From the NCBI GenBank assembly GCA_965208905.1, contig OZ242365.1, positions 32,001-96,000 on the forward strand: 64,000 bases of DNA, in the 5' to 3' direction. Within the stretch, counting starts at the first letter, position 1, and the number at the start of each line of letters is the position of its first letter. The DNA comes from Nitrosopumilaceae archaeon. GTDB taxonomy: Archaea > Thermoproteota > Nitrososphaeria > Nitrososphaerales > Nitrosopumilaceae. Shown one piece after another: positions 28,223 through 62,574 of the stretch. The translations under genes and the position numbers were made by a program. Below the pieces are notes generated by a model that worked only from the letters and a program-made list of their open reading frames with translations, was not told where the DNA came from and did no database searches.

Positions 28223-28266
28223 GTTTGATGTGTAAATTTTATTGTGTATTATATCTTACTGATTTT

Positions 28267-29884
28267 GGTTCCTCTCTCAAAGTCGGGTGACGGTTGATGT
28301 GTGTTGGATAGTGTTAAATACATTATTAAACCGTACTATGTAATGACTTTTATAAAAAAATAGTAGGGCAGTAACACGTCCATACACAAAAAATTTGGGC
28401 ATACAATACGTGTTTGAACATGTCAAGAAGGTGGCAGAAGTAGCGTACATTATGGCGCATAGTACAGGGAAGAATACCTATGATGTTGACGTATTGATAT
28501 ACCATACAATGCGCGGTTCTGACCCCAAAGTATATTCGGCCATAACGCAGACCGCCATACGGGACGGAGTTGCCGCCCATAAAACGTACAGGACAAAGGC
28601 TGCGCAGGGCATGAAGGTGTCTGAACCCGTATTCCGCAATCCGGTGGTAAAGTTGAAAAACCAAAATTGGAGGCTTAATCCGATAGCGGGTGGATATATG
28701 GCTATTGCAAATGTTGGCTCATCAAAACACCCACATATGATAGCAATTCCTGTTTCTTCAGATGTAGTACGCCGAATAGGACAAAACAAACTGGGCAAGT
28801 TGTGGATTACGCCGACCACATACACCATAACATATTACAACAAAGTGCCCGAGGTTGAAAAGCCCCACCCACACGGCAAGTCAGAGATTATCGAGTTGCT
28901 TACGGATGTGGGTTATGTGGGCGGTACACCAAAAGATGTAATCGGTGTAGACATCAATGAAAAGAATATCACCGTAGGCGATAAAAATACGATGATACAG
29001 TTTGATCTATCATATACGATACAGGCCATTGAGGACGCAAAGACTGAAGATGTAAACAATACGTATACCCGTACACATGATAATGCCGCATATGCGGCAC
29101 GTACCGGAAGGCGTGTTGCACACAAAAAAGAGGAGGCGCGCAGAGAAAAGCAACAAGTCACATATGGCGGTCATAAATTATACAACAAACTCAGACGTAG
29201 ATACAGGAAACTCAAGAGGGAGGGCAAACACAAGAGGGCCGCCGAAATAAAGAATCAGATGAGCAGATGCGTATTGAGCATACCGCATAACCACACAAAG
29301 TCAAAGAAGAATGCTAAAAAGCGCAGGGTGACCAAAGCCATGCGCCACCACGAACATGTGCTGAGTGTGATAGCACTATGCACTGCACAGTGGGCTACAC
29401 AATCTGGGTGTTTGGTGGTGTTGGAGGATTTAACCCACATATCGTACAATTGGCAGAAGGGTGGAAAGTTTGGACGTAGAATGCGTCGCAGGTTATATTC
29501 TGCCATGATGCGAAAGGCATCAAATTTAATTTATGAAAAATCCAGATTTTTGGGAGTGGGGGCATTACATATGCGTCCACACAACACATCCAAGTTGTGT
29601 GCTGCATGCAGAACCACATTAACTGGAACTTATCATAAAAAAGACTGCACCCGCTGCCGTATGGTTGGCGTAGACAGAGACGTCAACGCAGTGGAGAATA
29701 TACGGCTAACAAGCGCCGTATCCCGATATGGCCGTCAGGTTTCGGCCAGTCTGGGCGAAGTCCGTCGTGGTGTGGATGTAATACTCGATCCCACATCACT
29801 CATACAGGGTTGCTGGCGCAACTGGGCTGACAGACTATCCCGCATGGCGGCGGTGTAACGTCACCCAACTTTGTGGGAAGAACC
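28267..29884 (+). mobile_element. Non-autonomous TIR cassette carrying tnpB (family B, copy 1)
   Basis: TIRs GGTTCCTCTCTCAAAGTCGGGTGACG and revcomp GGTTCTTCCCACAAAGTTGGGTGACG (22/26); 8-bp TSD CTGATTTT at 28259-28266 and 29885-29892. Confidence 0.9.
28343..29858 (+). CDS. tnpB: TnpB family B copy 1, +1 frameshift in A-run near the 5' end (open frame 28395-29858)
   Basis: GVDINE, VLEDL, CAAC..CTRC, DRDVNAVENI; A7 at 28354-28360 versus A6 in copy 2. Confidence 0.85.
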
Positions 29885-30004
29885 CTGATTTTGGTTGTGC
29901 ACACACAACTCCGCTTTAGAAGTCATGATGTGTTTAAACAACATGATTTTTGTACAAGTCCGTGCTGAAATCAATTTATATGCCACTGATGCCACCCATA
30001 AACC

Positions 30005-31119: not shown

Positions 31120-32594
31120 AGAGTTTATGCGTAATTGCACAACTTGGCAGCATTGGGCGGTCCCGGCCCGTTCTGGCCGGTATCGCCCACCCCGGTACAG
31201 CTCATCGGCTCACCGCCGACGGAATTCTGGCGTTCCAGTTTGTGCGCCCCCGACAGATGCCATTCGGCATCTGCACTACGGCTCTCTAACAGCCGCATGA
31301 TGTTAAGGAGTGTAATTCTCCGACCATGCGTGAGTGTGCGGTCGGCGGCGGCCTCTTTCAGCAGCCGTGTTATGTGATATAATGTGGGGTCTGACGGTAC
31401 AGTAGTATGACACATCAGGGCCAATATGGTACGAAATAGTATGTTGGCACCCGCGTTGGCATCCCGTTCCCTAATTGTACGACATGTATGGCACCACATG
31501 TCGCGAGTAGGTATTTTACCGGTATTTGTCCCGATATGTTTTAGACTGCCGCCGCACTTGAGACATTTCGCGGACGTATGATACGGTTCGATTCCTATAC
31601 ACGGCAGACCCTCAGACTCGGCTGCGTTTTTGAGGGCGTTCTGTCTCTGGCCCGTATTCAGTGTGGATTTTGTTTTGCCACGCACAAATGGCGATATTTT
31701 ACCGTTTTTGGTGTACAGTCGGTGTATGCTCAACGTTTCATGCCCTATGCCGTACCCGGAATTGGCCATCTTCCGGGCTTCCACACATACATCATTATGG
31801 ATGCGATTTTTGTATACGCTCCATGCCTTGTTTGTGTATTTTGTTATGATGCGGTTATCACTACGCCGCTTCACCTTTAGCATCTTACTATATGCCTTGT
31901 TATATTCATGTGCATTGCGGTTGGGCTGCATAACTACAGTGCCATCAGCAAATGCATAGGTGTTGTTTTTGGCATTCATGTCCACACCGGCCCAGGATAT
32001 GGGCTCGCGATCCAGAATATCTTCCTTGTATGTAATGTGTATCTCATTATACCTTAACAGTACAGTCTTTGGCGTTCTGCCAGGCTTGGTGAGCTCATCT
32101 ACCACATATGGTGGTACAGGAAAGGCCAGCCATAACTTATCTGGACGACCCCTGCCGTATATGGGTACATGTATTGATGGTGTACCGTTCCACCGTTTTG
32201 ATGTATTATCAAATGCCAGCTCGAACCTATCTGTCTGCGCTACAGGGTTGTGATAGTGTGGGGCACATGCATGCACATTAATCAACTGATTCGTACACCA
32301 TGCCTTGTGGTTTCCATGCACGTTTTGTATTATATAGTCGGCGAAGCGCGAGTGGTATACGCCGGTATGGTGCACCGCCATACGATATAGTTTCTTGCCG
32401 CGCACACCCCTGCGTAATGCCTTCGCAGTATGATTGGATGCCGCCCCCACATAATGTAACAAACCGCCCAAAAGATGCCCGTTGCCATGTGTTACATGGA
32501 TGGTGCGCATTATTGTACCCATGCATATGATATGTGGTTTGTGGTATTTATATGTACGGTATTATACCTTATAATTCGATTACGCATAAACTTT
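31120..32594 (-). mobile_element. Non-autonomous TIR cassette carrying tnpB (family C)
   Basis: TIRs AGAGTTTATGCGTAATTG (31120-31137) and revcomp AAAGTTTATGCGTAATCG (32577-32594), 16/18; TSD at best degenerate (TTAATATT vs ATTGTATT). Confidence 0.8.
31125..32522 (-). CDS. tnpB: TnpB family C
   Basis: GVDMN, GHETL, CLKC..CHTC, ERDANAGANI; stop lies within the TIR; TATAAATA upstream. Confidence 0.85.
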   Translation of the reverse strand: MGTIMRTIHVTHGNGHLLGGLLHYVGAASNHTAKALRRGVRGKKLYRMAVHHTGVYHSRFADYIIQNVHGNHKAWCTNQLINVHACAPHYHNPVAQTDRFELAFDNTSKRWNGTPSIHVPIYGRGRPDKLWLAFPVPPYVVDELTKPGRTPKTVLLRYNEIHITYKEDILDREPISWAGVDMNAKNNTYAFADGTVVMQPNRNAHEYNKAYSKMLKVKRRSDNRIITKYTNKAWSVYKNRIHNDVCVEARKMANSGYGIGHETLSIHRLYTKNGKISPFVRGKTKSTLNTGQRQNALKNAAESEGLPCIGIEPYHTSAKCLKCGGSLKHIGTNTGKIPTRDMWCHTCRTIRERDANAGANILFRTILALMCHTTVPSDPTLYHITRLLKEAAADRTLTHGRRITLLNIMRLLESRSADAEWHLSGAHKLERQNSVGGEPMSCTGVGDTGQNGPGPPNAAKLCNYA

Positions 32595-60844: not shown

Positions 60845-60954
60845 TAATGTTTTGTATATATACAGAGCGATTTAATTCCTTCGGGAGTGTGCGCAATCAG
60901 GAGGTCTGTATCCGATAACTAGAACAATAATAACTTACATATTTTATCAATAAA

Positions 60955-62569
60955 GGTTTCTCCCGCAAAGTCGGGTGGTGGTTGATGTGTGTTGGATAGC
61001 GTTAAATACGCCATTAAACCGTACTATATGATGACTCTTGTAAAAAATAGCAGGGCGATAACACGTCCATACACAAAAAATTTGGGCATGCGGCATGTGT
61101 TTGAACATGTCAGGAAGGTGGCAGAAGTGGCGTACATTATAGCGAATAATACAGGGAGGAATACCTATGATGTTAACGCATTGATGTATCGTATAATGCG
61201 CGGTCCTGACCCCAAAGTATATTCGTCCATAACGCAGACCGCCATACGGGACGGGGTTGCCACCCATAAAACGTACAATACAAAGACTGCGCAGGGCATG
61301 AAGGTATCTGAGCCCGTGTTTCGCAATCCGGTTGTAAAGTTAACAAATCAAAGTTGGAGGCTGAATCCGATAGCGGGCGGATATATGGCTATTGCAAATG
61401 TTGGCTCATCAAAATACCCACATATGATAGCAATTCCCGTCTCTTCAGATGTGGTACGTAAAATAGGACAAAATGAGTTGGGCGAGTTGTGGATTACGCC
61501 AACTACATACACCATAACATATTACAACAAAGTGCCCGAGGTTGAAAAGCCCCACCCACACGGCAAGTCAGAGATTATAGAGTTGCTTACGGATGTGGGT
61601 TGTGTGGGCGGCACACCAAAGGATGTAATTGGCGTGGATATTAATGAAAAGAACATCACCGTAGGCGACAAGAATACAATGGTACGGTTTGATCTATCAG
61701 ATACGATACAAGCCATTGAGGAGGCAAAGACTGAGGATATAAACAATACGTATACCCGTACACATGATGATGCTGTATATGCGGCACGTACCGGAAGGCG
61801 CATTACACACAAGAAAGAAGAGGAGCGCAGAGAAAAGCAACAAGTCACATATGGCGGCCCCAAACTACACAACAAACTCAAACGCAGATACAGGAAACTC
61901 AAGAGGGCCGGTAAGCTCAAGAGGGCCGCGGAGATAAAGAAGCAGATGAACAGATGCATACTGAGCATACAGCATAACCACACAAAGTCAAGGAAGAATG
62001 CTAAAAAGCGCAGGGTGACCAAAGCCGTGCGCCACCACGAACATGTGCTGAGTGTGATAGCGTTATGTATAGCACAGTGGGCTGCACAATCCGGGTGTTT
62101 GGTGATGTTGGAGGATTTAACTCACATATCGTATAATTGGCAGAAGGGGGGAAAGTTTGGACGCAGTATGCGTCGCAGGCTATACTCTGCCATGATGCGA
62201 AAGGCATCGGATTTAATTTATGAAAAGTCCCGGTTTTTGGGAGTGGAGGCATTACATATGCGTCCACACAACACATCCAAGCTATGTGCTGCATGTAGAA
62301 CCATACTAACTGGAACTTATCATAAAAAAGACTGCACCCACTGCCATATAATTGGCGTAGATCGCGACGTCAATGCAGTGGAGAATATACGGCGAACAAG
62401 TGCCGTATCCCGATACGGTCGTCAGGTTTCGGCCAGTCTGAGCGAAGTCCGTCGTGGTGTGGATGTAATACTCGATCCCACACCACTCATACAGGGTTGC
62501 TGGAGCAACTGGGCTGACAGACTATCCCGCGTGGCGGGGGTGTAATCACCCGACTTTGTGGGAGGAACC
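60955..62569 (+). mobile_element. Non-autonomous TIR cassette carrying tnpB (family B, copy 2)
   Basis: TIRs GGTTTCTCCCGCAAAGTCGGGTG and revcomp GGTTCCTCCCACAAAGTCGGGTG (21/23); homology to copy 1 stops at the TIRs; no TSD. Confidence 0.9.
61031..62545 (+). CDS. tnpB: TnpB family B copy 2 (intact)
   Basis: GVDINE, MLEDL, CAAC..CTHC, DRDVNAVENI; GTTAAATA TATA upstream. Confidence 0.88.
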   Translation: MTLVKNSRAITRPYTKNLGMRHVFEHVRKVAEVAYIIANNTGRNTYDVNALMYRIMRGPDPKVYSSITQTAIRDGVATHKTYNTKTAQGMKVSEPVFRNPVVKLTNQSWRLNPIAGGYMAIANVGSSKYPHMIAIPVSSDVVRKIGQNELGELWITPTTYTITYYNKVPEVEKPHPHGKSEIIELLTDVGCVGGTPKDVIGVDINEKNITVGDKNTMVRFDLSDTIQAIEEAKTEDINNTYTRTHDDAVYAARTGRRITHKKEEERREKQQVTYGGPKLHNKLKRRYRKLKRAGKLKRAAEIKKQMNRCILSIQHNHTKSRKNAKKRRVTKAVRHHEHVLSVIALCIAQWAAQSGCLVMLEDLTHISYNWQKGGKFGRSMRRRLYSAMMRKASDLIYEKSRFLGVEALHMRPHNTSKLCAACRTILTGTYHKKDCTHCHIIGVDRDVNAVENIRRTSAVSRYGRQVSASLSEVRRGVDVILDPTPLIQGCWSNWADRLSRVAGV

Positions 62570-62574
62570 TGTTG

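Follow-up and report, generated by a model that had tools for sequence, protein, structure and literature searches.

A divergent archaeal tnpB gene as probable cargo of a non-autonomous IS6-type insertion sequence, with a candidate TAM set off from the left end

The locus described here raises the question of how a tnpB gene is moved when it sits between true inverted ends (TIRs) and target duplications (TSDs) with no transposase encoded beside it, and of what a TnpB nuclease would do in such a setting. It lies in a 64,000-nt stretch of DNA, referred to below as the window, from the genome of a sponge-associated ammonia-oxidising archaeon. This genome is a single contig of 2.21 Mb (45.6% G+C, 99.6% complete) across which insertion sequences are abundant. 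Inverted ends are present in all seven of its TnpB-only families, and 8-bp duplications could be demonstrated in four of the seven, as well as in one sub-type of FAM5.

The first copy of the element spans window positions 28267-29884 (1618 bp) and is bounded by inverted ends. The left TIR is of IS6 type and begins with GGTTCC (GGTTCCTCTCTCAAAGTCGGGTGACG; 28267-28292, + strand), and the right TIR (29859-29884, - strand) follows directly after the tnpB stop codon. The two arms are 26 nt long and complementary at 22 of 26 positions (85%), with a small palindrome, CCCGCAAAGTCGGG, inside each end. The element is flanked by two exact 8-bp TSD copies of sequence CTGATTTT, on the left at 28259-28266 and on the right at 29885-29892, which confirms the GGTTC..CAAAGT ends and 8-bp duplication that an initial annotation of this DNA had reported at 28259-29892. 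The exact direct repeat around this copy measures 12 nt, because the right flank by chance runs on with GGTT. When a degenerate 25-nt end pattern was searched in the window, three matches were found against 0.00 expected (none in 100 shuffles), the third corresponding to a second copy's right end; the looser pattern GGTTCN6CAAAGT gave seven matches against 0.84 expected. Similar motifs that had been listed at ~13628, ~39335 and 63979 are loose look-alikes recognized by eye: they fail both pattern searches and lie beside housekeeping genes without a partner end.

Copy 2 occupies positions 60955-62569 (+ strand, 1615 bp) and has no target duplication. The two copies are 94% identical, and their homology begins exactly at GGTT and ends exactly at AACC. 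An RNA-library contig from a related population joins position 60954 to position 62570; what it lacks is precisely copy 2, all 1615 bases of it, and 22 other letters stand in their place. From a separate source, this contig bears out the boundaries of copy 2 and reveals an unoccupied site. Across the genome, 12 copies possess both ends, one further copy is left-truncated and several fragments are present. With copy boundaries set by the end motifs, for TSD and flank counts alike, eight of the 12 two-ended copies are surrounded by perfect 8-bp TSDs, one shows an 8/9 match in a 9-bp register, and three, including copy 2 of the window, have none. Internally deleted copies that have lost TnpB (for example the 585-bp and 496-bp forms) keep 8-bp TSDs, and all insertions are located in AT-rich intergenic DNA. 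Transposition of IS6/IS26 elements is replicative, and the three TSD-less copies are compatible with replicative transposition via cointegrates, without demonstrating it; inspection of these three by eye revealed no swapped flanks, the sign of inversion by recombination.

The sole gene of the element is a divergent tnpB, and the element encodes neither a transposase nor an IS240 DDE domain. In copy 2 the gene is intact (61028-62545, + strand, 505 aa). That of copy 1 (28395-29858, + strand, 487 aa from a TTG codon) retains the RuvC D-E-D residues and the CxxC..CxxC motif and is N-terminally disrupted. It carries a run of seven A residues (A7; 28354-28360, + strand), a one-base insertion with respect to the A5 or A6 found in the other 11 copies, as a result of which a TAA (28353-28355) stands in frame before the conserved N-terminus; copy 1 is the one copy damaged in this way, with one TAA inside. 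The protein makes a narrow pass against Pfam PF07282 (TNB zinc ribbon; 27.4 bits versus a cut-off of 26.3), and the same domain is present in all full-length relatives. In an alignment of 20 sequences, D204, E362 and D447 are invariant (20/20), as are three zinc-finger cysteines, the fourth being nearly so, and RuvC-III reads DRDVN. The nine intact copies display a median dN/dS of 0.23 (range 0.14-0.28, 35 pairs). The AF2 model of the protein (pLDDT 73) was compared to known structures, as the initial annotation had proposed, and matches those of AsCas12f (Z 15.5), ISDra2 TnpB (8h1j, Z 13.8) and Fanzor2 (9b0l, Z 13.1), with Foldseek E-values of 1e-14 and 1e-9 for the Cas12f/TnpB matches and 1.5e-8 for Fanzor2; for the N-terminal WED/REC part of the model the rmsd is 2.7 Å over 157 residues. 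Judged from its sequence and from this model, the gene of the element is that of a TnpB-type nuclease, intact and under selection, with predicted nuclease activity.

What sets this protein apart is the stretch that separates RuvC-I from RuvC-II. Between the RuvC-I D and the RuvC-II E it measures 158 aa, whereas this genome's six other TnpB families have 80-93 aa there, in agreement with the earlier estimate of about 160 against about 85 aa. The K/R richness that had been put forward as a further distinctive trait of this spacer is not one, as its K+R fraction of 0.24 falls between the extremes seen for the other families (0.16-0.26). The spacer is predicted to be all-helical (helices within 224-355 of the AF2 model, pLDDT up to 92 near 281-310), and some relatives carry 64 further alignment columns in the same place. 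By position only, the insert may be equivalent to the region called REC2/bridge helix. We identified 34 full-length relatives with 32-91% identity, the only names given to these being 'transposase' of Cenarchaeum sp. A profile search of 1.84 billion representatives returned 24 matches at E<1e-30, of which six are full-length 50% clusters, and matches below this tier cover only the C-terminal RuvC-II to RuvC-III part. The named loci all belong to Nitrosopumilaceae or Thaumarchaeota assemblies, and six of ten genomes of the genus contain a match. At the level of sequence, these results support a distinct TnpB clade with an expanded RuvC-I/RuvC-II segment, as had been suggested, and one that is rare; its expansion is a conserved feature, and it clusters apart from ordinary TnpBs without TIRs.

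The ends of the element point to a partner. An IS6-family element of about 1.45-1.5 kb has the same ends and an 8-bp TSD; congeners possess it in intact form, and in this genome it is frameshifted. With one of the genome's IS6-like transposases as query, a translated search located it at genome positions 926302-927837 (1536 bp), with ends GGTTCCTCCCGCAAGGACGGGTGG and GGTTCCTCCCGCAAAGTCGGGCGG and a transposase gene broken by several frameshifts. The first 21 nt of the TnpB element ends are identical to its right end (genome position 927837), and a comparison by eye with the copies in the congeneric genome G126 gave a match at 23 of 25 nt. Among 12 end pairs listed from congeners, nine enclose open frames of 395-473 aa and have perfect 8-bp TSDs, eight of these intact-footprint elements being in G126 and one in G114. 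The resemblance to IS6 ends that had been pointed out is hence borne out by an element of that family (9/9 intact footprints with 8-bp TSDs), an element in which a transposase gene is flanked by TIRs of this kind, as the initial annotation had suggested looking for. The partner transposase (388 aa) combines a zinc-binding N-terminus with a DDE domain of IS240 type (Pfam PF13610, DDE_Tnp_IS240; 36.1 bits, cut-off 27). Its best NCBIfam match is NF033587, 'IS6 family transposase' (E 3e-21), on which it scores 76 bits, under the equivalog cut-off of 125. In all, 13 loci of the genome score above the IS240 DDE cut-off.

The same ends are also found on a second TnpB family, whose members are of ordinary length (about 1514 bp, eight two-ended copies); in one case 8 bp separate such a copy from the IS6-like element. 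At genome positions 924780-927837 the two form a compound, made up of a second-family TnpB element plus its IS6-like neighbour, with a single 8-bp TSD, TTAAACTC, around it; since this TSD surrounds the whole compound, one end of each element was paired in one insertion. Relatives of the window TnpB in four other genomes (33-43% identity over matched segments) have GGTTC...CAAAG-type ends and 8-bp TSDs. This compound element aside, we found no locus where the partner transposase and a window-type TnpB are enclosed by one pair of ends, and a 3.6-kb IS6-type transposon has no TnpB in cis, with a methylase and a putative nuclease instead. An automatic TIR search around the 12 other IS6-like genes of this genome and nine in the related genome G084 gave mostly no clear ends, with locus L044 as the only useful match. 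Only five differences, none of them beyond the first 75 nt at the left end, separate two of the TnpB copies, and near-identical copies in the presence of a broken partner point to a cross-acting IS6 transposase or to gene conversion. We consider it likely that the element is a non-autonomous IS6-type insertion sequence with TnpB as its cargo, in other words a trans-mobilised TnpB-ωRNA element, whose movement probably depends on an IS6 enzyme supplied in trans.

Two other ways of moving the element were weighed against these data. If it were an ordinary IS200/IS605 (IS1341-group) element, a Y1 TnpA would mobilise it by single-strand peel-and-paste, and the hairpin at its ends would be the usual subterminal hairpin. 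The small palindrome CCCGCAAAGTCGGG in each end would suit such an element, as would the flank motif described below, which recalls the tetranucleotide targets of IS200/IS605. The DRDVN form of RuvC-III is, moreover, the one described as that of 'typical TnpB' (PMC10691335). The true inverted ends, however, reach beyond the palindrome, and 8-bp duplications are made here, although the IS200/IS605 family makes none (PMC3119063, PMC6188088). In addition, the single-contig genome yielded no match to the Y1 transposase (PF01797), a search that was positive in six of 14 control genomes. We thus regard an IS200/IS605 origin of these insertions as highly improbable. Alternatively, TnpB itself could be the transposase, its RuvC (RNase H-like) site performing both cleavage and strand transfer. 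This idea would agree with the database name 'transposase', with the existence of seven TnpB-only families with inverted ends (and TSDs in four of them and in the FAM5 sub-type), and with the fact that the IS6-like partner is dead in this genome and yet two copies are nearly identical. Against it, the ends are common to elements that carry DDE transposases, IS6-like in the case of the window family and IS1595-like (138 bits) in that of three further TnpB families. TnpB is also established as an RNA-guided nuclease that is dispensable for transposition (PMC3119063, PMC10691335), and the internally deleted copies have TSDs in spite of having lost it. A transposase role for TnpB appears scarcely more probable than the IS200/IS605 one, and we retain mobilisation by an IS6 enzyme as the preferred reading.

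A TnpB of this kind would be expected to work with an RNA by analogy with studied TnpBs, and the 3' end of the gene harbors a conserved RNA structure in both window copies (29745-29848, + strand, overlapping the tnpB 3' end, and 62432-62535, + strand), a candidate ωRNA scaffold. Its strongest hairpin, of 8 bp, maps to 29767-29799 in copy 1 and 62454-62486 in copy 2. For the alignment we took the final 160 nt of five of this genome's copies and of eight relatives from other genomes, and the consensus comprises five helices with 23 pairs, 15 of which are changed on both sides; in the 8-bp hairpin both sides vary in seven of the eight pairs. Paired cells amount to 93.5%, compared to 69.9 ± 2.0% in shuffles (0/500 as high) and to 34-41% when the partners were slid, and the covariation score is 0.68 versus 0.25 in shuffles. 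G-U pairs of the structure occur on the sense strand. The aligned sequences represent about three lineages, and the number of independent covariation events is therefore small. Within the genome's 15 copies alone covariation is weak, with more than one standard pair type in 13 of 66 pairs, mostly G-C/G-U, and the signal arose only once relatives joined the alignment. A single-sequence fold of the 3' 260 nt gave a z of -1.93, which is not decisive, and an Rfam search of copy 2 at E up to 1 returned no match. RNA-library contigs from three runs of two studies cover about 62170-62558, though as contigs they can neither exclude DNA carry-over nor reveal where an RNA begins or ends; the middle of the element (about 61785-62138) is uncovered in all three runs, an observation that with contigs proves nothing. 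By the pattern of its covariation, the last ~150 nt of the element carry an RNA structure that is ωRNA-like in position and form, and we presume that it is a candidate ωRNA.

The flanks of the copies provide a further clue. In copy 1, the trinucleotide TTA is located directly 5' of the left TSD (28256-28258, + strand) and is a candidate TAM. We oriented all copies by tnpB and scored the two bases that precede the left duplication (positions -2 and -1). TA occupies these positions in 11 of the 12 two-ended copies of the window TnpB family (12/12 if one of them is read in the 9-bp register) and in all four partial copies; the third base back is T in most copies, giving TTA. It is also present in the five relatives in G084, as TTA in every case, and in two of four other relatives. 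TA is found in none of the nine IS6-like transposase-bearing elements with these ends, in one of eight copies of the second TnpB family with these ends, five of which have TTG, in none of 14 copies of FAM0, where G is at -1 in 12, and in two of nine copies of FAM8. No mirror motif follows the right duplication in the two-ended copies. This motif is thus one-sided and tracks the TnpB family, not the ends, which makes it TAM-like, and the interval between it and the left end equals the length of one duplication (8 bp). The unoccupied site reads TTA, then the 8 nt, then the right flank, an order that matches a guide read out over the right end; the right TSD copy (29885-29892) would then correspond to the first 8 nt of that guide. 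We lean slightly towards the view that the TTA beside the left duplication is the TAM of the window TnpB.

The same TTA could instead reflect the target preference of a transposase, possibly an unsampled one, or a bias towards AT-rich intergenic DNA, with TnpB playing no role in where copies are located. DDE transposases can show sequence preferences, the mover may belong to an IS6 subfamily other than the one sampled (there being 13 IS240-type loci), and the insertions do all lie in AT-rich intergenic DNA. A preference of this type fits less well with a motif that stands only on the tnpB 5' side, with no mirror beyond the right duplication, that is absent (0/9) from transposase-bearing elements with near-identical ends, and that is replaced by TTG (5/8) in the second TnpB family, whose ends are the same. 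Moreover, the motif is kept (5/5) in relatives that have 33-43% identity and different ends, and TA occurs in only 0/14 copies of FAM0 and 2/9 of FAM8. Transposase preference or base composition therefore seems to us an unlikely source of the motif, though the preference of an unsampled transposase is the main rival, and the TAM reading is the one followed below.

The association of TnpB with DDE-type ends is in itself already known. Six TnpB branches have been linked to DDE transposases, and solo TnpBs within the same ends were read as evidence for mobilisation in trans (PMC10691335). The main text of that work (Altae-Tran et al. 2023) names IS630 only, and a 2026 review (PMC13565253) lists ISL2, IS630 and IS1031 for it and considers such links rare in prokaryotes. 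The window element resembles these branches in having TnpB within symmetric TIRs and the 3' end of the gene near the transposon end (PMC10691335), and differs from them in that its probable partner is not encoded in cis and belongs to IS6, a family named neither in that main text nor in the review. IS6-family elements have short conserved ends and 8-bp direct target repeats, and their cointegrate mechanism has been described (PMC7986276, Varani et al. 2021). For the family as a whole, that survey reports no more than two MITEs and a single passenger gene, coding for a hypothetical protein, and no TnpB. Likeness to IS6 extends to ends that start with GG, to the 8-bp repeats and to the single IS240-type DDE transposase of the partner element, and longer members with N-terminal zinc fingers exist in the family (PMC7986276); by contrast, the window element is without a transposase and its partner scores under the NCBIfam equivalog cut-off. 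With the TnpB-only elements of the IS1341 group of IS200/IS605, such as the ISDra2 or IS608 TnpB-ωRNA system, it shares a homologous nuclease (PF07282, Z 13.8 to 8h1j), a structured RNA that runs over the gene 3' end up to the right end and a short left-flank motif at the expected place of a TAM. Unlike IS1341-group elements, it has inverted ends and 8-bp TSDs in a genome that lacks a Y1 partner, the 8-bp duplication lies between its motif and the left end, and its RuvC-I/RuvC-II spacer is about 70 aa longer. Fanzor proteins, the eukaryotic homologues of TnpB, are comparable as TnpB-type nucleases on DDE-type transposons with inverted ends and duplications, and the Fanzor2 structure 9b0l is a fold match, but the host here is archaeal, and the protein shows no specific Fanzor sequence affinity, its best matches being Cas12f and TnpB. 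We found no literature joining IS6 with TnpB, with the proviso that the supplements of PMC10691335 may hold an IS6-linked branch. What would be new in the present case is that the partner is IS6, that the TAM-like motif is offset, and that the clade is an expanded one.

A mechanism can be proposed on these grounds. An IS6-family DDE transposase acting in trans would recognise the shared GGTTCCTCCCGCAAAG ends and insert the TnpB element via an 8-bp staggered cut. The TnpB-ωRNA pair may then function as an RNA-guided nuclease, RNA guidance being assumed here from the example of TnpBs already studied. Read-out over the right end into the flank would supply its guide, which would include the duplicated 8 nt and the following bases, and the TTA immediately 5' of these 8 nt in the unoccupied site would serve as its TAM. 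Because guide and TAM would both match the unoccupied site, the nuclease could cut empty alleles, and such cuts would favour their acquisition of a copy of the element.

The accepted role of TnpB, derived from IS605/IS607 work, is to restore the transposon after scarless excision by TnpA, and DDE partners are for this reason held to be rare (PMC13565253). IS6 elements copy without excising, and on the reading proposed below TnpB would therefore have no excision site to repair here. In this genome IS6-type ends carry two TnpB families and IS1595-type ends carry three. We tentatively suggest, as a possibility that falls somewhat short of even likelihood, that TnpB-ωRNA has left IS200/IS605 to become cargo on at least two unrelated DDE families, and that the TTA is the trace of a persistence filter or of an insertion bias. 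If so, the nuclease would cut empty alleles and thereby decide which insertions persist, as a gene-drive filter, or, alternatively, would bias the place in which a borrowed transposase inserts. The finding links IS6 and TnpB, two well-studied families that were unconnected in the literature searched, and supplies a predicted compact nuclease clade of 505 aa whose helical insert is unusual and whose TAM is likely to be short and of TTA type. A multi-copy TnpB that is under selection within replicative DDE ends, with a TAM-like motif offset by the length of the duplication, would represent a natural case in which to ask what role TnpB plays where excision leaves nothing to be repaired.

The whole genome carries approximately 80 copies of TnpB-only elements falling into seven families, all of which display inverted ends, and a whole-genome search identified no Y1 transposase, the enzyme type of IS200/IS605. 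Perfect 8-bp target-site duplications were present in 10 of 14 cases for FAM0 (represented in the window at 1496-2967), 8 of 12 for the window TnpB family (28267-29884 and 60955-62569 in the window), 4 of 8 for FAM6, with two further cases at 7/8, 7 of 9 rows for FAM8, and 2 of 3 for the FAM5b sub-type of FAM5. FAM10 (window 31120-32594), the other FAM5 sub-type, FAM5a, and FAM16 are not included among the families with demonstrated 8-bp duplications.

Within the window TnpB family, near-identical copies occupy different sites at genome positions 329442-331057 and 891631-893246. Approximately 1540 nt are identical between them, and the 5 differing positions all lie at the left end, within its first 75 nt, a distribution that suggests either recent transposition or a tract of gene conversion. 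In the case of FAM16, the two copies (genome 1455264-1456902 and 2049469-2051107) have one flank octamer in common, GGAAATTA, which is located on opposite sides, as expected for recombination between the two.

The window itself holds two copies of the window TnpB family. At the second (60955-62569), which has no target duplication, the unoccupied allele recovered from RNA library X24, whose contig joins window positions 60954 and 62570, carries 22 letters in place of the element; thus, this insertion replaced or lost approximately 22 bp. We note that in both copies a third end-like motif (GGTTCTGACCCCAAAGT; window 28515-28531 and 61202-61218) lies within the coding region, approximately 248 bp from the left end, and may represent chance or a vestige.

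Other elements with IS6-type features were identified elsewhere in the genome. A 3.6-kb element with perfect inverted ends (GGAACTGGTGCATC...) is present in two copies outside the window (genome 1337692-1341293 and 1851328-1854929), between which the flanks (GTCCGTTG) are swapped; it encodes an IS6-like transposase that is intact, together with an N4/N6 methylase-like protein and a 288-aa protein, and might represent a transposon of IS6 type that carries restriction-modification genes as cargo. Miniature elements of 171 bp (genome 347829-347999, 470822-470992 and a further six pairs) have the termini of a different IS6 subfamily (GGTTCTGGGAAATCA), and perfect 8-bp duplications were demonstrated for two of them. 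MITEs of IS6 type are described as rare in PMC7986276.

Outside the window, transposons with GGGAATTATATAC ends and 8-bp duplications (genome 1770047-1772736 and 1043578-1046414; locus L089) encode an IS1595-family transposase (PF12762, 138 bits) and also hold a DNA methylase-HNH gene. Their 13 terminal bases are common to three TnpB families, FAM0, FAM8 and FAM16, and, judging from these shared termini, a second DDE family, IS1595, appears to mobilise TnpB elements in this genome.
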